A stretch of 64,000 nucleotides of DNA from Verrucomicrobiia bacterium. Lineage in GTDB: Bacteria > Verrucomicrobiota > Verrucomicrobiia > Limisphaerales > UBA11358. A program made the position numbers and the translations under genes. The stretch lies in NCBI GenBank assembly GCA_036498725.1, contig DASYEY010000256.1, positions 5,611 through 69,610 on the forward strand. The letters are read 5' to 3'. Positions within the stretch are counted from its first letter, which is position 1. The number at the start of each line of letters is the position of its first letter. Below are positions 5,578-64,000 of this stretch, piece after piece. Under the pieces are notes generated by a model. The model saw only the letters and a program-made list of their open reading frames with translations, did not search any database and was not told the DNA's origin.

Positions 5578-6990
5578 TCACGCGGCTACGGGCACCGCCG
5601 CTTTTTGCTGCCAGCCGAATAATTTCTTGGCCTTGATGACTTCAAAAATCGCCGCTGGAATGATTTCGCTCAGCGATTCATCGCCGGCATGGATCTTGGC
5701 CAGGACTTCACCGGAATAGACCTTGAGCACTTCCGGGTTATAGCCGGCGATGTTTTCAATAAATTTATTTTCCACCAAGTGAGCGTAGAGATGGCGCAGG
5801 TGCGGTGCGACTTCCATATTTTCGACGGTGATGAGTTTGCCGGTTTTTTTATCAAGCGACGGGTAAACGTATAATTTCGCGCCATTCTTGAACAACTGGC
5901 CGAGCGATTCCATCAAGCCGCCGGGCAGGTCAGTGTAAAATTTTTCGTCGAACACATCCCGCAAACGCACCAGCCCAATGGGCAGTCCGATAGGGCGGTC
6001 CGTCTGGCGCGACAGATAGGTGACGAGGCGATGGTAGCGCAGAAAGTTTGAAATGAGCACCGGTTTGCCCAGTGCGCCCAGCGTGTCCACGCGGTCCAGA
6101 AAATCCTGGTGGTCAATCGCATTGCCGACCTGCAGCTGGCGCAGCGTCATTTCGAACATGACGACGGGTTGCTCGCCGGGAGCACATTTTTCCTGCACGA
6201 ATTTTTCCTGTGCCCGTTCCAACATGTCGAGCATCGGATTGGTGAGCGGCCGAAAACTTCCGCGCTCGAGCAGGATCGGTTTTTTCCACAGCAGTTCGCC
6301 GGGAATCACGGCCTCACCGGCAGCGGTGAACATGGCGGCTTCGGTCAGCCATTGTTCGACGAGTTGCAGGGCCATCAGACGATTGTCCACGCCCGTGAAC
6401 GCGGGGCCGGAAAATTTGATCATATCCACTTCCACCCGGGCGCTGGAAAGGTCATCCAGCAGGGAACCGATGAGCTGGGTCGGGCTGCCGGAACGGTAAA
6501 ACGCACCGTGGATCAGGTTCACGCCGATGATCCCGAGCGCTTCCTGCTGGCGGAGGCTTTCCTTGTCGAGGGTGCGGACGTGAATCATGATCTGCGATGG
6601 CGCTTCGTGGAGTTGCGCTTGAAATTTTACGCCCAGCCAGCCCTGGCCTTCATCGCGCTTGGTGGCGACAGTGTCGGCAAAAACGAAGAACTGGCATTTG
6701 TCGCCGCGGGTTTTATCCAGCCGTTTGAGGAGCAGGTCAAACTCAAGATCCAGCATCGCCTGCAGGCGTTTGCGGCTGACGTAACGGTCGGCTTTGCCGT
6801 AAATCGCGTCGCTCACGGCCATGTCGTAGGCGGAAATGGTCTTGGCCACGGTGCCGGAGGCCTTGCCGACATGGAAAAAACGGCGGGCAACTTCCTGGCC
6901 GGCGCCGATCTCGGCAAACGTGCCATATTTCTTGGCATCGAGATTGATCTGGAGCGCCTTTTCGTCGGTGTTTAATTTTTCGCCGGTCAT
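5578..6990 (-). CDS. Conserved hypothetical protein (470 aa, family not assigned)
   Basis: Long ORF with coding-like composition and no low-complexity stretches. The N-terminus GTFAEIGAGQEVARRFF looks like a conserved motif, but I cannot name the family. Confidence 0.6.
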   Translation of the reverse strand: MTGEKLNTDEKALQINLDAKKYGTFAEIGAGQEVARRFFHVGKASGTVAKTISAYDMAVSDAIYGKADRYVSRKRLQAMLDLEFDLLLKRLDKTRGDKCQFFVFADTVATKRDEGQGWLGVKFQAQLHEAPSQIMIHVRTLDKESLRQQEALGIIGVNLIHGAFYRSGSPTQLIGSLLDDLSSARVEVDMIKFSGPAFTGVDNRLMALQLVEQWLTEAAMFTAAGEAVIPGELLWKKPILLERGSFRPLTNPMLDMLERAQEKFVQEKCAPGEQPVVMFEMTLRQLQVGNAIDHQDFLDRVDTLGALGKPVLISNFLRYHRLVTYLSRQTDRPIGLPIGLVRLRDVFDEKFYTDLPGGLMESLGQLFKNGAKLYVYPSLDKKTGKLITVENMEVAPHLRHLYAHLVENKFIENIAGYNPEVLKVYSGEVLAKIHAGDESLSEIIPAAIFEVIKAKKLFGWQQKAAVPVAA

Positions 6991-56260: not shown

Positions 56261-56641
56261 GTGGGCGATGACATCACTGAAAAATATCTGCTCTTGTCCA
56301 ATTCTCATGACGGCAAATCCAGCGTCTCAATCAAATTCACACCAGTCAGGGTTGTTTGTCAGAATACACTGACGCTCGCACTCAATGACGGATCGGCTTG
56401 GCGAGTCTCCCATCATTCCGACATCCATCAGAAGCTAAAGCAAGCGAATCAGATGTTGGGACTGATCCATGAACGGTTTGATGATATGGAGCAGACGTTT
56501 CAGGCCATGTCTCGCGTAAAACTCAATTCTGATCGCTTGGCTCAATATCCCACCAGCCAGCCCGATTTAGTTCGATATGCTGAACTAGGGCTGCAGCTCC
56601 TTTTGGCAAAAGAGATAAATGTGAACTCATGTTATCTGTAA
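56261..56641 (+). pseudogene. Truncated DUF932-family (plasmid/ICE/phage-associated) gene remnant
   Basis: The 126-codon frame opens right after a stop codon. It starts mid-domain with YLLLSNSHDGKSSVSIKFTPVRVVCQNTL, the core DUF932 motif. The N-terminal half is missing and the C-terminus is divergent. The 3' end overlaps the convergent ATPase gene. Confidence 0.6.
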
Positions 56642-58161
56642 GCCTGGTAAAAGGCTTCGGCAACAAATTTGGTGAACTCCTCGGTCTTGTTATCGCTGCG
56701 GGCGATTACCTGGAATGGTTCGAGCTTCGCGATTTCGGACTGCAAATCCTTTGCGGTTTTGTTACTGCACCCGATGATGGATTGGATAGATGCCGGCACC
56801 ACACCTTCGCACTGGAAAATAAATGCGAACTCCAGAAGCTCCTGAAAGTTGAAGAATGACTGCTGGTAGTCATTAGGCGACTGCGACGCAAAAAAGACAA
56901 CGATACCCTTAGAGCGGCCTTCACGGATGATGCGTTGGAGGAAAATATTTTTTTGCGGCAGGTAATTGTGGGCTTCGTCAATCACCAGGACGCAACGAAT
57001 GGTGCGCCGCCCATTTTCCACCGGGCTGTCCGGCAGCGCCGCCATTTCCTTGTAGAGCCGTTCAATCACGAGATACGCCACCAGTTCCTTGAGGACAGGC
57101 ATCTTGTGCAAGTCGATGACCATGGTGCGGTTGGTAAGGCGCTCCAATGGATCGCGCTCGCTGCCATGTTTCCAAAACAGGTTGAACGTCGCGAGGTCCC
57201 GCAGCACTTCGACGAGGGAATCGTCGTTCTTGCCGTCATCGGCGTAGTCAGCCTGGACGATGTCGAAAACATCCTGAAAATCTGGATAGGGGCGGGGCGA
57301 ACCGGCGCGCTTGGCGTAGGCCGCGCGAATCGCTTCGGCCAAAGCGCCTTTCTGGACCACGCCCAGCTTGGAACTGATGGAGGCAAAGCTCTCGGCCTTT
57401 TCGCGGGCGGAAACGGTAATGGTCGTGTCGTCATAGGCCGGCAGCACGAACGGATTGATCGGCAGATTCTGACTGCCGTTGAGCAACGAAAAGGTCTGGG
57501 CCTTGCTGACTTCAACAAAATTTTCATTGGTCCCCACGTCCCCTTTGTAGTCAAACAGGATAAAATTGGTCTGGTGGCCAGATTGGAGACGTATGTCGGC
57601 GAGCAGTTTTAGCAGGAACTGGGTTTTACCGACACCGGGCTTGCCCATGATCGCCAAATGTGAATTGGCATGACGCACCGAGTTGTTGAATTCAATGACG
57701 ATGCTGCCCTTTGTCAGAATCTCGCGACCGATAAAAATATCCAGCCCTTTACCGCGCGCCTCACGGCGGCCTTCAAATTCCACGGTTTCAACCAGTCGGA
57801 CGAGAAGTTTGGCGGAATCCTGGCCACATTCCTTAAACAGCTTTTGCAAATGGACGCACCCATTATCTATATGGTCTTTGATGAATGACCGATTGGAATA
57901 AAAATCGTCTTCGCTGATGTCGGATCGCTGGTGAACCTGGGCGACCAGTGTGCGCATGAAGAGTTCGTCGGACCCAATAAAGGTCGGGCGTTTGATTTCC
58001 ACGCCGGTAAAATCAGAACTCCGGGCAACGTTCGCGCCTTCCGTGGCGAGCGAAAGCGAAAATGCCATGCGTGCCAAGATGAATTTTTCCAACTTGGTCT
58101 CGGCCCGCAGGGCACTCAAGACATCATCGGCCGGTTGTGAGGTAAAAAGTCGATCGGCCAT
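56632..58161 (-). CDS. DndE-like domain fused to a HerA/FtsK-like (DUF87-type) P-loop ATPase
   Basis: The first roughly 125 aa (ILARMAFSLSLATEG...EIKRPTFIGSDELFMRTLV...FIKDHIDNGCVHL) resemble DndE. Walker A is MGKPGVGKTQFLL and Walker B is RCVLVIDEAHNYLP. The start lies 1 nt after the upstream stop. Confidence 0.7.
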   Translation of the reverse strand: MADRLFTSQPADDVLSALRAETKLEKFILARMAFSLSLATEGANVARSSDFTGVEIKRPTFIGSDELFMRTLVAQVHQRSDISEDDFYSNRSFIKDHIDNGCVHLQKLFKECGQDSAKLLVRLVETVEFEGRREARGKGLDIFIGREILTKGSIVIEFNNSVRHANSHLAIMGKPGVGKTQFLLKLLADIRLQSGHQTNFILFDYKGDVGTNENFVEVSKAQTFSLLNGSQNLPINPFVLPAYDDTTITVSAREKAESFASISSKLGVVQKGALAEAIRAAYAKRAGSPRPYPDFQDVFDIVQADYADDGKNDDSLVEVLRDLATFNLFWKHGSERDPLERLTNRTMVIDLHKMPVLKELVAYLVIERLYKEMAALPDSPVENGRRTIRCVLVIDEAHNYLPQKNIFLQRIIREGRSKGIVVFFASQSPNDYQQSFFNFQELLEFAFIFQCEGVVPASIQSIIGCSNKTAKDLQSEIAKLEPFQVIARSDNKTEEFTKFVAEAFYQAYR

Positions 58162-58162
58162 A

Positions 58163-60154
58163 TCATTTCTCCCAAAAATATCCTTCTTTCAAGGTGGTTA
58201 ATTCCTGTCGTTGATCAAAGAGCAAATGGGCCGCGCCGCTTAAATGCGGCTCCAGTTGCTTGAAATAGTTTTTATCAATTTCCATGTCGGTGGAGAGAAT
58301 TACCACCTGATCCGCCGCATTGGGGAAATAGTTATTAATAATGTTGTCCCGGTGCGTGCTGTCGAGGCGTGATAGCGGCGTATCAATGATGATGGGCAGC
58401 TTTAGCTGGCTGGTTTGGGCAAGTCCCCAAAGCAGCGAGACGGCGAAAACCTCTTTTTCACCGGCGGAGAGGCTTGATTTGCGCATCTCATGGCCGCTAC
58501 GGTCGCGGATCGTGATTTCGTATGTTTTGTCATCAATGACCAGGTCTTGAATCAAGCCGCTTTTGCTGGAGAGCAAACGATACATCTCAAAGGTTTTATC
58601 CTGAAGCAAGGCGACCTTGCTCAAGCGGAGGCGCACCGTGAACTGGGTCAGGAGACTGGCAATGGCGTCGCATTCATCGAGGAGCAAGGTTTTTTCCTTG
58701 GAGACATTGTGCTTTTCAAAAAGTTTGTTCACCTCCAGCTCAATCTCGGCAATGCGGCGTTCCAAGGTGAGAACTTCCTCCTCCAAGCCGCGCAACTGCT
58801 CCGTCTTCCGGCCAATCTGCGTGGAATAGCCCTCCATCTCGGTTTGCAACTGCTGGAACAATTCCTTTTCGACCTCGGTGCTGACGCCGAAATGTTGTGT
58901 GCCGACGAGCCGCTTGAGTTCCACGTCCAATTCACGCTTTTCCTCGAGCATATTCATCAGCAGAAATACCTCGCTGGATTCGATTTCATCCATGCGCCCC
59001 AACACTCGCGCCGCGTCACGCTCAGACAAATTGAGAATCTTAGCCTTGGCACCGCCGTGGGTGCCCTCGCGTAGAAGTTTGAAAATGCGCTGCTCCAATT
59101 CCGCCATTTTTTCCGGCGACAATTTTTCCCGGTAGATCGGCTCTGGTTCCTCGACGACTCGCACGAGCTGCTTGGCCAACTCACCGGCGTGCTCATGGAT
59201 GGCTCCCTGCAAGGTGTCTTCGCGCTCTGAATCAATCTGTTTTTTCAGCGGATCAAAAATTTTGCCGGCCAACGCGAAGGGCAAAAACTTCTCGGCCAGC
59301 ATTTTGATTTCATTTTCCAACTGGCCGAGTCGGTTGGAAACTTGGAGTCGCCGCTTTTCATTCTGCCGGGTGGCTTCCTGAGTTTCAGGTTCGGCATGGA
59401 ACGCGGTCTGAAACCGTTTCTTGGCCGCTTCGTTACCGGTTTTTAGTTCTTCCAACTCGGTCGTTTTTTCCTTCTGCTCGGCCTTCTTCTTGGTCAACTT
59501 GCTTTGCTCCCGTTTCAATTCAGTTTTCTTGAAGTCGAGGTCTTCATCGGAAATCTCGACAAAATTCTGCCGCTCTTGCTGCTTGAGATAAATGATGTCG
59601 CTGGACAGGCGCGTGATGGACTGGATTCCTAGAGCGGCCTCCAACGAGGATTTTAACCGCACTTCCGAATGGTCATCCGCCGCGATTTCCTGGATTTTTT
59701 CGCCGTCAAAAAAGAAAAACTGCGTGATGCTGCGCGGGACCGTGGCATTGATGAAATCCTGCCAGATTTCCTTGTTTTGGACGGAAACCCGCTTGCCGTC
59801 CTTCACGACGACCAGTTTTTCCTCCAAATCCTGCGGTCTCGGTTTCTCCACCGCCCCGGCGCTCCAACTGCGTTTGACGATAATTTCCTCGTGGTCGTCG
59901 GTTTCAAAAGTCAATTCAAACGAAACGCTAGCGTTGCCCTTGGCGAGTTCCTTGCGGTTAATGTATCGGAAGATGGCCTCGGGCTTGGCACCATAGAGGC
60001 AAATGCTGATGGCCTCGGTCAACGAGGTTTTGCCCGCGCCATTCATACCGCCGATCAGGAAAATGCTTTTGCCGGAACTGCCGACCGGGAAGCGGATTTC
60101 CACGGGCAACTGGAACGACTTGTAATTATCAATTATGAGCTTGGTAAATTTCAT
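58163..60154 (-). CDS. DndD/SspC-like SMC-type ATPase
   Basis: N-terminus MKFTKLIIDNYKSFQ...GGMNGAGKTSLTEAI, followed by a coiled coil of about 450 aa. The C-terminal LSAGEKEVFAVSLLWGLAQ...LPIIIDTPLSRLDSTHR...YFP...QVVILSTDMEI closely matches the DndD signature and Walker B region as I recall it. The 663-aa length is typical for DndD. Confidence 0.85.
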   Translation of the reverse strand: MKFTKLIIDNYKSFQLPVEIRFPVGSSGKSIFLIGGMNGAGKTSLTEAISICLYGAKPEAIFRYINRKELAKGNASVSFELTFETDDHEEIIVKRSWSAGAVEKPRPQDLEEKLVVVKDGKRVSVQNKEIWQDFINATVPRSITQFFFFDGEKIQEIAADDHSEVRLKSSLEAALGIQSITRLSSDIIYLKQQERQNFVEISDEDLDFKKTELKREQSKLTKKKAEQKEKTTELEELKTGNEAAKKRFQTAFHAEPETQEATRQNEKRRLQVSNRLGQLENEIKMLAEKFLPFALAGKIFDPLKKQIDSEREDTLQGAIHEHAGELAKQLVRVVEEPEPIYREKLSPEKMAELEQRIFKLLREGTHGGAKAKILNLSERDAARVLGRMDEIESSEVFLLMNMLEEKRELDVELKRLVGTQHFGVSTEVEKELFQQLQTEMEGYSTQIGRKTEQLRGLEEEVLTLERRIAEIELEVNKLFEKHNVSKEKTLLLDECDAIASLLTQFTVRLRLSKVALLQDKTFEMYRLLSSKSGLIQDLVIDDKTYEITIRDRSGHEMRKSSLSAGEKEVFAVSLLWGLAQTSQLKLPIIIDTPLSRLDSTHRDNIINNYFPNAADQVVILSTDMEIDKNYFKQLEPHLSGAAHLLFDQRQELTTLKEGYFWEK

Positions 60155-60189
60155 GGTCTGATTGCCTGGCTTTCAAATTGTGTTTCTCA

Positions 60190-60642
60190 TCAATTCCGGT
60201 TGCTGGACGGCCAAGAAAATAAATCCATGGATTTTTCGTCCTCCGCTTTTTTCTTGCGCCGCTTGGCCGGCGGCGGAATGGGCGCGGCGGACGGTTTTGG
60301 TTCGACCACCGCCGGAAGTTGGCTGGCCAAACGGGTCAGCGAATCCCGCAATTGATAGGCGAGCTTGCTACGGAGACGTTCGACTTCCTCTACCTTACAA
60401 ATATCCGAACTCAAATTGATTTTGATTTTGCGGAGGTCATCGGGAATGAGGATGCCCTGTTTCTCCAGCTTGCGAATGGTTTCGCCGATGGCGACCAACT
60501 GGCCGTTGATCTGGACTGGGTTTTTCTCACGGGAAAACTTTTCGACATGGCAGATGATTTCATCCAGTTCAGCCAGCAAGGTCTCGATCCGCTTTTCCAG
60601 CGACTCGAGATGCAGATGCGTTTGGTGGCCGCTTTCCGCCAT
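60190..60642 (-). CDS. Coiled-coil protein, paralog 3 (basic C-terminal tail; hypothetical)
   Basis: It shares the helical N-domain and the motif IRKLEKQGILIPDDLRKIKINL with the two upstream genes. The C-terminus is Pro-rich and then KRRKKK. The start was taken at the ATG at 60642, 2 nt after the upstream stop. Confidence 0.6.
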   Translation of the reverse strand: MAESGHQTHLHLESLEKRIETLLAELDEIICHVEKFSREKNPVQINGQLVAIGETIRKLEKQGILIPDDLRKIKINLSSDICKVEEVERLRSKLAYQLRDSLTRLASQLPAVVEPKPSAAPIPPPAKRRKKKAEDEKSMDLFSWPSSNRN

Positions 60643-60644
60643 AA

Positions 60645-61277
60645 TCAATGATGGTCTCCGTTCAGCTCCCACACGCCGCGAGGTGAGTTACTCTTCAAGA
60701 TGCCCTCTTGCACGAGATTGTAACGCTCCCAGCAGGTGTTATTTTCCCAAACCACCTCGCCGGACGCGCGTGTTTCCAGGTCGCCGGGCAAAAAACGGTT
60801 TTCCAAATGCTCCTCCATCCGCTTCAATGCTTCGTGAATGCTGGCCCGACCGTCGTGCGCTTTCAAAGCTTTGACCAGAAACTCGCGCAATACCTGTTTG
60901 TCGGTCCGGGGGACATTCGAGCGGGGGCGACGGTGCCGGGGTTTGGCGTCATGGTCCTTGGCCGGCAATGTTTTTTGAATTTCCGCCGACAAAGATTCCA
61001 GCTCGCCGCGCAAGGATTCCAACGCCTCGCCGACTTCCTCCTCCAAGCTCAACTCGGTCACCAAGGTGGTTTTCAAATTCCGAAGTTCCGTCGGGACCGA
61101 AATTCTTGACGACTCCAGCCGCTCGATGCTGCGAGCTACCTCGCGAAGCTGTTTGATTTTCTCGGTTGATTCCTCGCTGGGGACCAGGCCTAACAATTGG
61201 CCGGCAATCTCCCGCAATTCCCTGGTCAACACCTCGGCCCGTTCGGCGAGATGACGAGGATTGTGGGTAGCGGCCAT
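60645..61277 (-). CDS. Coiled-coil protein with a C-terminal Mrr_N-like winged helix, paralog 2 (hypothetical)
   Basis: The N-domain motif is IERLESSRISVPTELRNLKTTL. The C-terminal VLREFLVKALKAHDGRASIHEALKRMEEHL...GEVVWENNTCWERYNLVQEGIL...RGVWEL fits the Mrr N-terminal wHTH pattern. Confidence 0.65.
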   Translation of the reverse strand: MAATHNPRHLAERAEVLTRELREIAGQLLGLVPSEESTEKIKQLREVARSIERLESSRISVPTELRNLKTTLVTELSLEEEVGEALESLRGELESLSAEIQKTLPAKDHDAKPRHRRPRSNVPRTDKQVLREFLVKALKAHDGRASIHEALKRMEEHLENRFLPGDLETRASGEVVWENNTCWERYNLVQEGILKSNSPRGVWELNGDHH

Positions 61278-61280
61278 AGA

Positions 61281-61934
61281 TTATTTGGCGCGTGTGGCGG
61301 CAAACCGGGCAGTCAGTTCCCAATAGCCGCCATTGGTTTCATCCTTCACTGTGCCTTCTCGGACCATTACTCGGCGTTGCAGACAGGCATTGCGACGCCA
61401 AATCGGATTGTTGTTGTAATCGTCCAGATCAAGGTCGTCGGAGGTTAATTTGCCTTTCAGCATCTCACCTACTTCGTTGAGAACTGTGGTGGTTTTGGCG
61501 CGGCCATTATGGCTTTTAAGTGATTTAATGATACATTTGCGAAGCACGCTGTGAGCAGTGGTAGCTCCCGAATTGTGGCGTGCCTTGCGGTCGCCGGTTA
61601 CAGAAATCCCGCCCATATGAATCTTTGCCATTATTCTTGCCGTCTCCTGCTCAACCATGTCGAAAATATTTCGTGCCTCTTCAAACTGATGGGTTTGCAA
61701 AAGTAGGTCTGTTTTTAGATTTCGCAATTCATCTGGCACAGGGAGTTTCCTGTTTTCAAAACTTTTGATGGTCTTGGAAATCTCGTGTAACTGATCAACC
61801 TTTAGTGGTGCGTCCTTTGGAGGCCGATAGCGAGCCAGCGCGTCGGCCAAGTCGTCAAACTGGGAAATCAGCGTTTCGGCTTCGACCCGGAGCTTTTGCA
61901 AATCAACCGAATTATCAGAATCGTCTTCAGCCAT
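61281..61934 (-). CDS. Coiled-coil protein with a C-terminal Mrr_N-like winged helix, paralog 1 (hypothetical)
   Basis: The N-domain motif is IKSFENRKLPVPDELRNLKTDL. The C-terminus is VLRKCIIKSLKSHNGRAKTTTVLNEVGEML...NPIWRRNACLQRRVMVREG...GGYWEL. Confidence 0.65.
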   Translation of the reverse strand: MAEDDSDNSVDLQKLRVEAETLISQFDDLADALARYRPPKDAPLKVDQLHEISKTIKSFENRKLPVPDELRNLKTDLLLQTHQFEEARNIFDMVEQETARIMAKIHMGGISVTGDRKARHNSGATTAHSVLRKCIIKSLKSHNGRAKTTTVLNEVGEMLKGKLTSDDLDLDDYNNNPIWRRNACLQRRVMVREGTVKDETNGGYWELTARFAATRAK

Positions 61935-62118
61935 GATGTGGTTCAGGTTTTAGACCACCGGCGACAATTTCCTTCAAGGCCTCGTAGATGCCGTGGCGGC
62001 GATCCTTGAATTCGTATTCTTTAACGGTGTCGAGCAACTTCAACACCTTGTCGTAATTGACCTTGTGCTCGTCACAAAGTTGCTGCAACAGCCGTTTGTC
62101 TTCGACGGAAAGCTTCAT
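61927..62118 (-). CDS. 63-aa helical protein (hypothetical)
   Basis: It has an ATG start 2 nt after the upstream stop. Its 3' end overlaps the next start by 8 nt. The charged helical sequence is MKLSVEDKRLLQQLCDEHKVNYDKVLKLLDTVKEYEF. Confidence 0.5.
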   Translation of the reverse strand: MKLSVEDKRLLQQLCDEHKVNYDKVLKLLDTVKEYEFKDRRHGIYEALKEIVAGGLKPEPHHG

Positions 62119-62120
62119 GA

Positions 62121-63332
62121 TTATCTCCCGGAATGCGTTACGTGATAGATTAGCGGCTCCAGCTCCAAACCCAAGTCTTTTAGATTAGGCTGCTTCATCG
62201 TGAAAACCCGTGGCGATTTGCTCAGGGCGGAGAACACGATGTAGAGGTGATAATTTGCCAACTCGGCCGATTTCTCCAACTCGTTTGCGGAGAGGTAAAA
62301 TCCGTTTTGCAGATTTGGCCCAGTGGTGGCCTTAACCTCAATCGGGCGCTCCGTGCCGTCATCTTCAAACGAAAGAATGTCGTAACCCAAACCGTCCTCG
62401 CTATCGGCTACATGGTCAACCTTTTCTGCCAATTCCGATTTGCCGCCTTGAATGAGGCGCTGTTTCTCCAGGGCCAGCACGATCAACTCGCCACGGTCGC
62501 CGGTGCGCTTTGTTTTTTTTTGCCGGGCCTCGTAATCAATTTTGCCGCGACCGGTTGGCTGGTTCCCAGCGGCGGGAGGTAAAGCTGGCATGTCTCTTAT
62601 GAACGCCGCACCATCAATGGCCGTTCTGAGCATCGGGATGCCGGGAGCCGCACTGCCGGACTTCTTAGGATCAACCGGGTGACCAAACACTTCGTAAAGC
62701 AGGCGCATGTAAAGCGCGGGTGGCTGAGCTTTCAACTTTGGCCAGGTGGCGCGATACTCCATGAGCGCTTGCTGCATGTCCGCTTCACATTCGAACGCGC
62801 CGTCCAAATCTAACGCTGCTATGAAATGCTCCAGATGCTGCCAAGCATATATGGGGGCGAACTTTTCAGGGAAATAAACGAAAAGAATTTTCCCCTTGAA
62901 CATGGGAGACAGGGCGTTACCGGCAATTGCAGCAAAGTCGTTGGTTGCTGCGGCACGAATTAAATCAACAATCGCCTGCTTAATTGAAGCAAAGGCGGCT
63001 GATAGATTGTTTCCCCATTTCTTTGTGAAACGGTATTCTTTGGGCGTATTTTCGCCAAATTCGCCGAAATACACACCAAACTTAGGCGAAAACGCACCGA
63101 CGATTTTCCCGAAAGTGTCCATCTCCCGTTCGAGGCGATAGCAGAAAGAGCGATTGGCTTTACCTTTGCCGATGACGTATTCATCTAGCTCGAGGCTGAG
63201 AATTTTATGGGACGGAAAATCGGCAACGAAGTCCTGACGGGTTTGCTCGGCTTGTTTCCATTCTTCCAGATCGCGCTGCGCGAACATGGGGACGAGCCGG
63301 GCAATTTCGTCCGCCATCGCCAGCCGATTCAT
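62121..63332 (-). CDS. DUF3883-type (PD-(D/E)xK-like) nuclease domain protein with an unassigned N-terminal domain
   Basis: The C-terminal GDRGELIVLALEKQRL...GYDILSFEDDGTERPIEVKATTG...FYLSANELEKS...YHLYIVF matches the DUF3883 pattern. The start was chosen at MNRLAMADEI (ATG 63332), which forms an ATGA overlap with the upstream stop. Confidence 0.75.
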   Translation of the reverse strand: MNRLAMADEIARLVPMFAQRDLEEWKQAEQTRQDFVADFPSHKILSLELDEYVIGKGKANRSFCYRLEREMDTFGKIVGAFSPKFGVYFGEFGENTPKEYRFTKKWGNNLSAAFASIKQAIVDLIRAAATNDFAAIAGNALSPMFKGKILFVYFPEKFAPIYAWQHLEHFIAALDLDGAFECEADMQQALMEYRATWPKLKAQPPALYMRLLYEVFGHPVDPKKSGSAAPGIPMLRTAIDGAAFIRDMPALPPAAGNQPTGRGKIDYEARQKKTKRTGDRGELIVLALEKQRLIQGGKSELAEKVDHVADSEDGLGYDILSFEDDGTERPIEVKATTGPNLQNGFYLSANELEKSAELANYHLYIVFSALSKSPRVFTMKQPNLKDLGLELEPLIYHVTHSGR

Positions 63333-64000
63333 TTGGCGACTGCCTCCTCTATCAGTTGTTCGACGCGGGTTTTGGCTTCTGCGAGGAGCTGCTTTGATTT
63401 GGCCTCGGCAGCGGCACCACGGTCGTAAAGCTTGCGAATTTCTTTCTGCACTGAATCGGGGGCTTCCCAAATTTGAAACTTCCGAATGTCGAAGGGATAC
63501 AACTCGATTTGGCCGGACGAACCACGCTGGTGCATTTCCACCTGCATCTGACCGGCGCGACTGTTCAGGTAAAAGGACGCATACACCGGGTCCAAGGTGG
63601 AGGAACGCAGAATGGTGACGTGATTGTCTGGCAGCGCATTCTCGTTGGCTAGATAGGGCGCAACCCGCCCAAGCGTCCCACGGCCAGTGCCATTCATTAG
63701 GATGTCACCGTAGCGGATTTGTAGGTCTGCCAGTGGACCGGGCATGGCCTGGCGGTTGCCGTCGAGAATCACCTTATTGGGTTGGACGTGTTTGGAATTG
63801 ACCACCGGCAAACCCGAATCACTGTAAAACGGTTGTTTGCCGCGATTACAAAATGTTAAATGACGGGTCAATGGCGCGAGTGTGATTTTCTTTGGCAGCT
63901 TTTGAACGAAGCTCTTGAACTCTGGCAAAAAATGCTCTGAATCCAACCTTCTTGATTTCTCTACTTCACTGAATTGCGCCGTGTAACCAACGGGCCAGTC
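63329..64000 (-). CDS. hsdS: Restriction-modification specificity subunit (HsdS-like, single target-recognition domain), 5' end at or beyond the window edge
   Basis: A Methylase_S-type TRD (VVNSKHV...GDILMNGTGRGTLGRV...DNHVTILR...YLNS..GQ.Q) is followed by a C-terminal conserved helix (EIRKLYDRGAAAEAKSKQLLAEAKTRVEQLIEE). The frame stays open to position 64000 (DWPVGYTAQFSEVEKSRRLDSEHF). Confidence 0.75.
   Translation of the reverse strand, partial: DWPVGYTAQFSEVEKSRRLDSEHFLPEFKSFVQKLPKKITLAPLTRHLTFCNRGKQPFYSDSGLPVVNSKHVQPNKVILDGNRQAMPGPLADLQIRYGDILMNGTGRGTLGRVAPYLANENALPDNHVTILRSSTLDPVYASFYLNSRAGQMQVEMHQRGSSGQIELYPFDIRKFQIWEAPDSVQKEIRKLYDRGAAAEAKSKQLLAEAKTRVEQLIEEAVAK

Follow-up and report, generated by a model that had tools for sequence, protein, structure and literature searches.

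Conserved linkage of a methylase-nuclease and its specificity subunit with DndD and DndE-HerA ATPases in a ten-gene verrucomicrobial operon

The end of a 64,000-nt stretch of DNA from a Verrucomicrobiia bacterium (assembly GCA_036498725.1, contig DASYEY010000256.1, positions 5,611 to 69,610; this whole stretch is referred to as the window) carries eight consecutive open reading frames (ORFs) on the minus strand of 56632-64000. These encode relatives of the Dnd proteins of phosphorothioate (PT) DNA modification, part of a specificity (S) subunit, three coiled-coil proteins, and a DUF3883 protein. The question raised by this locus is whether such a mixed set of genes forms a single defence system, and which of its genes would then belong to it. 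The original prediction considered all eight genes as one undescribed defence operon. The present analysis supports, with moderate confidence, a different composition: the region holds the last eight genes of an operon of ten, the core of which is a five-gene, methylation-based restriction-modification (R-M)-like cassette, in which scanning ATPases would be coupled to a methylase-nuclease (RM) and its S subunit. The core consists of RM, S, Sp-DndD, DndD, and DndE-HerA, with the coiled-coil gene as an optional accessory and the DUF3883 gene as a passenger.

Extent of the operon and its conserved core

The ORF check of the window confirmed the eight genes, their strand, and all seven of their junctions exactly as predicted. 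In gene order from 64000, the first and third junctions are overlaps (ATGA at 63329-63332, and 8 nt, respectively), and the second, fourth, fifth, sixth, and seventh are gaps of 2, 3, 2, 35, and 1 nt; the second 2-nt gap, before coiled-coil paralogue 3, presumes a start ATG at 60642, and the gene call by JGI is the same (150 aa). A promoter and terminator scan of the window detected no signal that would divide the operon. The frame of the S gene stays open up to base 64000, the window edge. Two metagenome contigs from JGI sample 3300036781 matched the window with 0 mismatches over 2672 (L001) and 14663 nt, and L001 runs beyond the window edge, where it contains the full S gene and, directly upstream of it, the RM gene. 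Further upstream of the RM gene are glnD, an extracytoplasmic function (ECF) sigma factor gene, and other housekeeping genes, whereas DndE-HerA is followed downstream by a truncated DUF932 gene and a gene of the beta-lactamase family. Because RM and the full S gene were found beyond the edge and unrelated genes on both flanks, the operon is a ten-gene unit of ~11 kb with clear borders, and the window holds its distal eight genes. The proposal of one co-directional defence operon thus held, with ten genes in place of eight, and the single-target recognition domain (TRD) HsdS that had been part of it proved to be an artefact of the window edge. The ORF list gave the S gene as a 205-aa ORF with a TTG start (63329-63946) despite the open frame, which may have contributed to the impression of a short single-TRD subunit.

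The window proteins were mapped onto 160 loci from more than ten phyla, of which 80 were taken from genomes around DndE-HerA and 80 from metagenomes around RM, and presence was counted in the DndE-HerA loci with at least 8 kb upstream (n = 49) and in the RM loci with at least 6.5 kb downstream (n = 28). All 49 DndE-HerA loci also carry DndD, and 48 of them carry Sp-DndD, 42 carry S, and 41 carry RM; a coiled-coil protein was present in 35 and DUF3883 in 2. Similarly, S was found in all 28 RM loci and Sp-DndD in 25 of them; DndD and DndE-HerA were each seen in 24, the coiled-coil family in 18, and DUF3883 in a single locus. Linkage of RM with DndE-HerA was 84-86% in both directions (41/49 and 24/28), and the order of the genes was invariable: RM, S, a variable slot, Sp-DndD, the coiled-coil gene when present, DndD, and DndE-HerA. 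The minimal five-gene form without accessories was identified in L004, L016, L026, L030, L036, L056, and L063, and cultivable Lysinibacillus, Cytobacillus, Methylotuvimicrobium, Paracoccus, and Aequorivita contain it; L026 belongs to Lysinibacillus sphaericus BKU_1 (CP193985), and a further related locus, L027, to Methylotuvimicrobium buryatense 5G. Clustering of the 1483 neighbouring ORFs of the 160 loci, which was independent of the window proteins, recovered RM in 114 loci, DndD in 101, DndE-HerA in 99, S in 97, the coiled-coil family in 72, and RhuM in 36, and no further family occurred in more than 8 loci. Furthermore, the distance matrices of the core proteins were congruent (r = 0.84 for RM and DndD, 0.79 for RM and DndE-HerA, and 0.91 for DndD and DndE-HerA; Mantel test, each p = 0.001, 52 non-redundant loci).

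The core proteins and their relation to known systems

The RM ORF on L001 was called as 950 aa, with HSDR_N_2 (78.9 bits), N6_Mtase (129.7 bits), and Eco57I domains, which corresponds to an N-terminal PD-ExK nuclease that is fused to an N6-adenine methylase. The expectation that a Type I methyltransferase would be encoded just past the window was correct with regard to the methylase, but this fusion takes the place of a Type I hsdM or hsdR. The nuclease motif E178-x-K180 and the methylase motifs DPxCGSGG and NPPF were invariant in 98 of 98 RM sequences, and D161 was kept in at least 95% of them; both the nuclease and the methylase activities therefore look intact. The protein probably starts at an internal Met (MGEKKS...) and is ~916 aa long, since its homologues are shorter than the call (median ~920 aa) and conservation sets in near this Met; the call on L001 is likely too long at its start by 34 codons (5803-5904). 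Residues ~640-850 (L001) form a long Glu/Lys-rich stretch, predicted to be helical and poorly conserved, between the methylase core and a conserved C-terminal domain of ~100 aa. This stretch is also present in a stand-alone copy of RM from Trichormus variabilis that is described below, and could be a contact surface for coiled-coil partners. In L010, L017, and L029, the RM gene is truncated, and L017 has intervening ORFs that are transposase-like by sequence. Downstream of it, L010 and L017 keep almost complete matches to DndD and DndE-HerA, and the DndD match is shorter in L029; these three loci look like decaying copies.

The full S subunit comprises 449 aa with two TRDs and matches the PADLOC Specificity_I model (249 bits, model positions 11-443 of 459). 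Its identity to the window copy ranges across loci from 21 to 71% beside a steady 55-83% for RM, which is the usual signature of TRD turnover. The closest solved structure to RM was the Type IIB enzyme RM.BsaXI (8w0p, E = 1.3e-33), with only the methylase region aligned. Both the cassette and Type IIB systems (BcgI and BsaXI) contain a single RM polypeptide with an N-terminal PD-ExK domain and a gamma-type N6-adenine methylase, as well as a separate two-TRD S subunit, a likeness at the level of sequence. On the other hand, the operon of the cassette adds two ATPases and a protein resembling the tail of DndC, which Type IIB systems neither need nor carry.

The 63-aa protein belongs to the Pfam family Sp-DndD (PF20306; 33 bits, cut-off 27.2), which Pfam describes as a small protein of certain Dnd DNA modification systems. 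Its matches to DndC fall at the C-terminal end, over ~50 residues (404-454 of 481 in one model and 395-444 of 447 in another), and it was 48-69% identical to its related copies (48/49 loci). DndD, a coiled-coil ABC ATPase, scored 373.2 bits against TIGR03185, over the equivalog cut-off of 245.85, and E = 2.9e-128 against the PADLOC DndD model; its Walker A (GMNGAGKT at 36), signature (LSAGE at 562), and Walker B (IIIDTP at 588) motifs are intact. In the last protein of the operon, the DndE domain exceeded the Pfam cut-off (47.7 bits versus 25) and remained under that of TIGR03184 (42.7 bits versus 71.85). Its ATPase part is of the DUF87/HerA type, matches the C-terminal domain of DptH (7es4, E = 1e-21), and retains intact Walker A (GKPGVGKT at 173) and Walker B (LVIDEA at 392) motifs. 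The predicted DndD-like ATPase and DndE-HerA/FtsK fusion were thus both corroborated. DndE-HerA homologues formed 884 clusters, with ~70% identity between distant phyla; no close homologue was detected in PLSDB or in IMG/VR, so that carriage by plasmids or phages found no support in these two collections. No nuclease domain was detected within the DndD module in the profile searches.

These matches raise the question of whether the locus is a PT modification system of the Dnd type, with DndA/IscS and DndC acting in trans. DndD exceeds the equivalog cut-off, DndE exceeds the Pfam cut-off, and Sp-DndD is a fragment of DndC, as such a system would lead one to expect. Nevertheless, this is highly improbable. 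Among the 1483 neighbouring ORFs of the 160 loci, there was no recurrent DndC-like/PAPS-reductase family and no recurrent DndA/IscS-like cysteine desulfurase family, and an active-looking adenine methylase and an S subunit recur instead. Only the 63-aa protein matched DndC, at ~395-455, so just its last ~50 residues are represented, and no DndC-sized family recurs in the 160 loci. DndA/IscS is absent from the operon, its flanks, and its recurrent neighbours, with a distant iscS possible. The lack of DndA/DndC and SspA/SspD that was observed in the window extends to the upstream sequence on L001, which brought none of them either. Because no DndA or DndC family recurs in the 160 loci, assignment to the PT systems was rejected. 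DndABCDE and the PbeABCD/CxC systems have in common with the cassette a core of an ABC ATPase and a DndE-like domain, and the DndD of the cassette exceeds the cut-off of TIGR03185. In contrast to DndABCDE, the cassette contains no DndA, DndB, or catalytic DndC, its DndE is fused to a translocase, and its modification enzyme is an adenine methylase. The cassette also differs from PbeABCD/CxC systems, because it lacks a CxC hook (a motif scan of DndD found no CxC motif, the sole cysteines being C52 and C495) and the HKD nuclease-SF2 helicase PbeA. PbeC models match only as relatives of DndD, and no PADLOC matches to PbeA, PbeB, or PbeD were observed among the window proteins. As regards DndFGH, neither DndF nor DndG was found, and only the C-terminal HerA/FtsK domain of DndH was matched (PADLOC DndH, 144 bits, C-terminus only, model positions 1333-1714).

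Likewise, the operon might be a divergent member of the eight-gene MADS family. MADS is likewise a methylation-based system of several genes, among them an S subunit, a HerA-like ATPase, and a methylase of the HSDR_N-plus-N6_Mtase type, and the best NCBIfam matches of RM and S were MAD2 (NF047738, E = 1.8e-81) and MAD5 (NF047740), respectively. The HerA-type domain matched the PADLOC mad8 model with 79 bits (residues 140-435), which was weaker than its match to the DndH C-terminus. MADS membership was rejected, as MAD2 reached 274.4 bits against an equivalog cut-off of 720 and MAD5 reached 128.4 bits against 400, and RM scored higher on the generic PADLOC MTase_I model (518 bits). No protein showed a PADLOC or further NCBIfam match to mad1, mad3, mad4, mad6 (the kinase), or mad7 at E ≤ 0.01 among the matches listed, which for DndD were the best 25 of 66 PADLOC matches, and the operon contains no kinase. 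DndD, Sp-DndD, and the DndE domain are Dnd-family parts, and neither these nor the coiled-coil/Mrr_N proteins are MADS components, as far as profiles show. The view of the operon as a divergent MADS member is accordingly given little credence. Three plasmid RM matches (H14, H15, and H17) that were considered as MADS loci turned out to be unrelated methylase contexts.

MANTIS (Gao_RL) and BREX resemble the cassette in concept only, in that adenine methylation marks self and an ATPase loads or activates the methylase and licenses restriction. Their ATPases are unrelated to those of the cassette (DUF499/BrxC AAA+ in MANTIS and BREX, ABC and HerA/FtsK here), and RM matched PglX only weakly (41.7 bits, cut-off 500). 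At the profile cut-offs, the statement that the set does not correspond to the definition of Dnd, Pbe, MADS, or any other system with a name was therefore upheld.

Passenger and accessory genes

The slot between S and Sp-DndD, which is occupied by the DUF3883 gene in the window, was surveyed in the 86 loci that hold both S and Sp-DndD. It was empty in 32 of these, and in 29 such loci the gap from S to Sp-DndD measured 0-9 nt. RhuM alone filled the slot in 29 loci and was accompanied by other genes in 4 more (33/86, e.g., L008:6137-7183). The remaining occupants included a coiled-coil/RAMA gene (7/86), a Zeta-like toxin (4/86), DUF3883 (3/86), and, in a few loci, YhcG/DUF1016 or DarT-DarG; these identities were backed by Pfam. 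RhuM-type and similar genes are well known as passengers in the operons of Type I R-M systems, where PrrC-type and RhuM-type genes sit embedded. RhuM is by far the most frequent occupant, common enough that it may be functionally linked to the cassette, beyond mere hitch-hiking. Slot passengers have junctions as tight as those in the window (e.g., a 4-nt overlap in L008). Tight coupling is thus no proof of membership in a system, because unrelated cargo such as RhuM is equally tight in the same slot.

The domain call for the DUF3883 protein was borne out by Pfam (NOV_C, 59.9 bits, PD-(D/E)xK type). Moreover, the protein matched the PADLOC model of PD-T4-1 (PDLC04021) with 255 bits (E = 2.5e-76), a model that has no curated cut-off, and the alignment ran nearly end to end (residues 20-399 against model positions 21-376 of 383). 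PD-T4-1, which is recognised here through this PADLOC model, is said to be a single-gene DUF3883 defence described by Vassallo et al. in 2022. The window protein resembles it over nearly its full length and differs from it in being embedded inside the operon of another system. The DUF3883 gene is best read, from its sequence match, as an embedded single-gene defence of the PD-T4-1 type and a passenger in the slot. The original prediction had cast it as the dedicated effector of an eight-gene machine, in which the coiled-coil/winged-helix trio would position DndD and DndE-HerA on DNA. All eight genes are tightly coupled in the window and the DUF3883 protein is of the PD-(D/E)xK type, but this machine is considered quite improbable, since DUF3883 occupies only 3 of the 86 scorable slots and RhuM, DarTG, YhcG, or Zeta-like genes fill the slot in other loci, where their junctions are just as tight. 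RM already carries a nuclease, the invariant PD-ExK domain, and this is the conserved one. The effector role of DUF3883 was thus not sustained, and neither was the trio as a feature of the system, because three coiled-coil copies were found in only 3 of 98 other loci, and none in 25 of the 98.

The three coiled-coil proteins are paralogues with a common N-terminal motif, of which paralogues 1 and 2 end in a winged helix, whereas paralogue 3 ends before it in the alignment. This agrees with the original description, which is also in line with the structural model and the Mrr_N matches. In the remaining loci with the family, one copy (66) was far more frequent than two (4), and the trio of the window is a local expansion of a gene that is typically single and optional. 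Paralogue 2 is the nearest to the single copy of most loci, with a tblastn identity of 29-49%, mostly 33-46%, to copies elsewhere. Its AlphaFold2 model (210 aa, pLDDT 72.7), which was built from a three-sequence alignment and is of modest quality, shows three long helices in the N-terminal part and a basic linker that is disordered, followed by a winged helix, and this C-terminal domain is arranged as helix-strand-helix...helix-strand. In a Foldseek search with this model, all matches were winged-helix proteins, with a best E of only 0.009 and none at or below 0.001, and the family profile returned nothing significant against PDB sequences. Mrr_N was matched by 50 of 70 family members (best E = 2.4e-10), and RAMA/DUF4357 was found instead in 9 of the 70. 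The family thus joins a conserved helical N-terminus to interchangeable C-terminal domains, which are DNA-binding domains of types usual in restriction and methylase proteins. In L062 (5988-6617), L069 (6831-7466), and L083 (5244-5882), a RAMA/DUF4357 accessory is placed before Sp-DndD and not after it.

The positions of the features in the window are presented in Table 1. The truncated DUF932 gene (Pfam, 103 bits) covers only profile positions 58-151 of 227 and overlaps the 3' end of DndE-HerA by 10 nt. P4-type integrases were identified downstream of the cassette in 6 related loci, and the truncated gene was probably left behind by the mobile element that brought the cassette. L001 and the second contig identical to the window, L003, both stop at the boundary of paralogues 1 and 2 (window ~61294-61329), where the metagenome assembly was apparently broken by the paralogous repeat. 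No tRNA genes were found in the window.

Table 1. Genes of the operon that lie in the window, and the gene at its downstream border
Feature	Position	Strand	Remarks
S subunit, C-terminal 223 codons	63332..64000	-	gene exits the window; full protein of 449 aa with two TRDs
DUF3883/NOV_C protein, 403 aa	62121..63332	-	PD-T4-1-like; best read as passenger in the variable slot, not core
Sp-DndD, 63 aa, small helical	61927..62118	-	PF20306; core
Coiled-coil + winged-helix paralogue 1, 217 aa	61281..61934	-	family alignment
Coiled-coil + Mrr_N-like winged-helix paralogue 2, 210 aa	60645..61277	-	Mrr_N, E = 2e-4
Coiled-coil paralogue 3, 150 aa, without winged helix	60190..60642	-	family alignment; JGI length
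DndD	58163..60154	-	TIGR03185; core
DndE (double ribbon-helix-helix) + HerA/FtsK-type ATPase fusion, 509 aa	56632..58161	-	Pfam DndE, DUF87/HerA; core
Truncated DUF932 gene, 126 aa	56261..56641	+	downstream border; not counted in the system

Coupling of the two halves and its implications

The linkage of the core genes, their order and conservation, the integrity of their motifs, and the absence of PT enzymes are observed features, from which a physical coupling of the two halves is inferred. In the proposed mechanism, RM and S would read a bipartite sequence, methylate adenines of the host, and cut unmodified DNA, and DndD and DndE-HerA would power ATP-driven scanning, loading, or translocation on DNA. 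The latter two would thereby stand in for the superfamily 2 (SF2) HsdR motor of Type I systems, or for the loader ATPases of BREX and MANTIS. Sp-DndD may serve as a tether between the modification enzyme and DndD/DndE, a role that this module presumably also has as a part of DndC. The N-terminal helices of the coiled-coil proteins probably dock on the complex, and their Mrr_N or RAMA domains would bind DNA and possibly sense its methylation state. The DUF3883 gene would simply have settled in the cargo slot, where the two halves of the cassette adjoin.

Several points weigh against this cassette reading. The physical or functional coupling between RM-S and the ATPases is deduced from linkage only, and linked genes that are transferred together can give congruent trees without interacting. 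An RM-plus-S pair built like a Type IIB enzyme can do without a motor, and what Sp-DndD and the coiled-coil proteins would do is guessed from their homology and position. In addition, either half is found by itself. RM and S occur alone and intact on plasmid D (27 kb) of Trichormus variabilis ATCC 29413 (L164, NC_021575.1:60-4198), where RM (917 aa, 72% identical) and S are followed by parA/parB and no DndD module is present. Because of this intact stand-alone copy, RM-S appears able to persist by itself. Intact RM-S without a DndD module was also found in L114, L137, and L162, and the Sp-DndD/DndD/DndE-HerA module was intact without RM in L034, L038, L068, and L072. The two halves are modules that are able to persist apart, yet they are together in ~85% of loci.

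The main rival explanation is that three independent systems share the operon, namely a Type IIB-like RM-S pair, PD-T4-1, and a DndD/DndE-HerA "capture" module. Each of these units exists alone with intact genes, RM and S make up a complete Type IIB architecture, the PADLOC model catalogues PD-T4-1 as a one-gene system, and the cargo inserts precisely at the boundary of the two halves. This explanation nevertheless seems rather unlikely, because independent systems would not readily account for 84-86% co-occurrence both ways in a fixed order with 0-9 nt junctions across more than ten phyla, or for the congruence of RM with the ATPases. The DndD module, moreover, has no recognisable effector or modification domain of its own. 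In L073 (4556-7038), a different R-M pair, an N6_N4 methylase with a TdeIII Type II protein, takes the place of the missing RM-S upstream of Sp-DndD, and a divergent 930-aa methylase-like protein is at the same position in L028 (4159-6951). These substitutions suggest that the modification module is exchangeable.

A broader interpretation of the cassette, which is put forward tentatively as a possibility, treats the DndD/DndE chassis as a general ATP-driven DNA-scanning platform. Modification enzymes would plug into this platform via the DndC-tail module, which is freed here as Sp-DndD and would recruit a Type IIB-like methylase-nuclease. An ABC ATPase and a HerA/FtsK ring translocase would then replace the SF2 motor, and both methylation and cleavage would need the two non-helicase ATPases, as well as an optional Mrr_N/RAMA accessory that reads N6-methyladenine (m6A). 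If this platform interpretation is true, then the cassette would represent a new mechanistic class of R-M.

The core cassette is widespread and has in part been noted before by computation. A DndE-fused HerA/FtsK protein beside a DndD-related ABC ATPase was reported by Rakesh et al. (2024; PMC10853773, section 22), citing Krishnan et al. (2020). In that article, the pair is given one sentence, under "Dnd PT-modification systems". The cassette contains the same pair (clade-3 HerA/FtsK), with the same order of an N-terminal DndE and a C-terminal HerA. Unlike in that description, no PT enzymes are present here, and a nuclease-adenine methylase and an S subunit accompany the pair in ~85% of loci. 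The term undescribed system therefore no longer applies to the pair, which is mentioned in this article, or to the small protein, which is already named as PF20306. It still holds for experiments, as no experimental study of the cassette turned up in full-text searches that paired DndD with HerA and, in part, also with DndE. The same source proposed that a co-evolving ABC ATPase and DndE core scans DNA (section 14), and argued that the DndD/E core recruits non-PT modification enzymes (abstract and section 16), including cytosine methylases in CxC systems. ATPase-dependent loading of a methylase has been described for another family, MANTIS (bioRxiv 10.64898/2026.09.23.753747). With the cassette, the idea of DndD/E recruitment extends to adenine methylation and to the clade of DndD itself, and a PT label is not appropriate for it.

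This corrects the published label, since the loci are not PT systems. Current annotation tools would split such a locus into "DMS other", "PD-T4-1", and stray Dnd matches, and other defence and toxin genes have a hotspot in the slot that separates the S gene from Sp-DndD. If linkage reflects function, then the cassette joins the Dnd machinery of PT modification with classical methylation-based restriction, which are usually treated apart. The DndD/DndE core would then be a modification-agnostic DNA scanner, and the cassette would provide a tractable model of the coupling between self-marking and restriction in MADS, BREX, and MANTIS.

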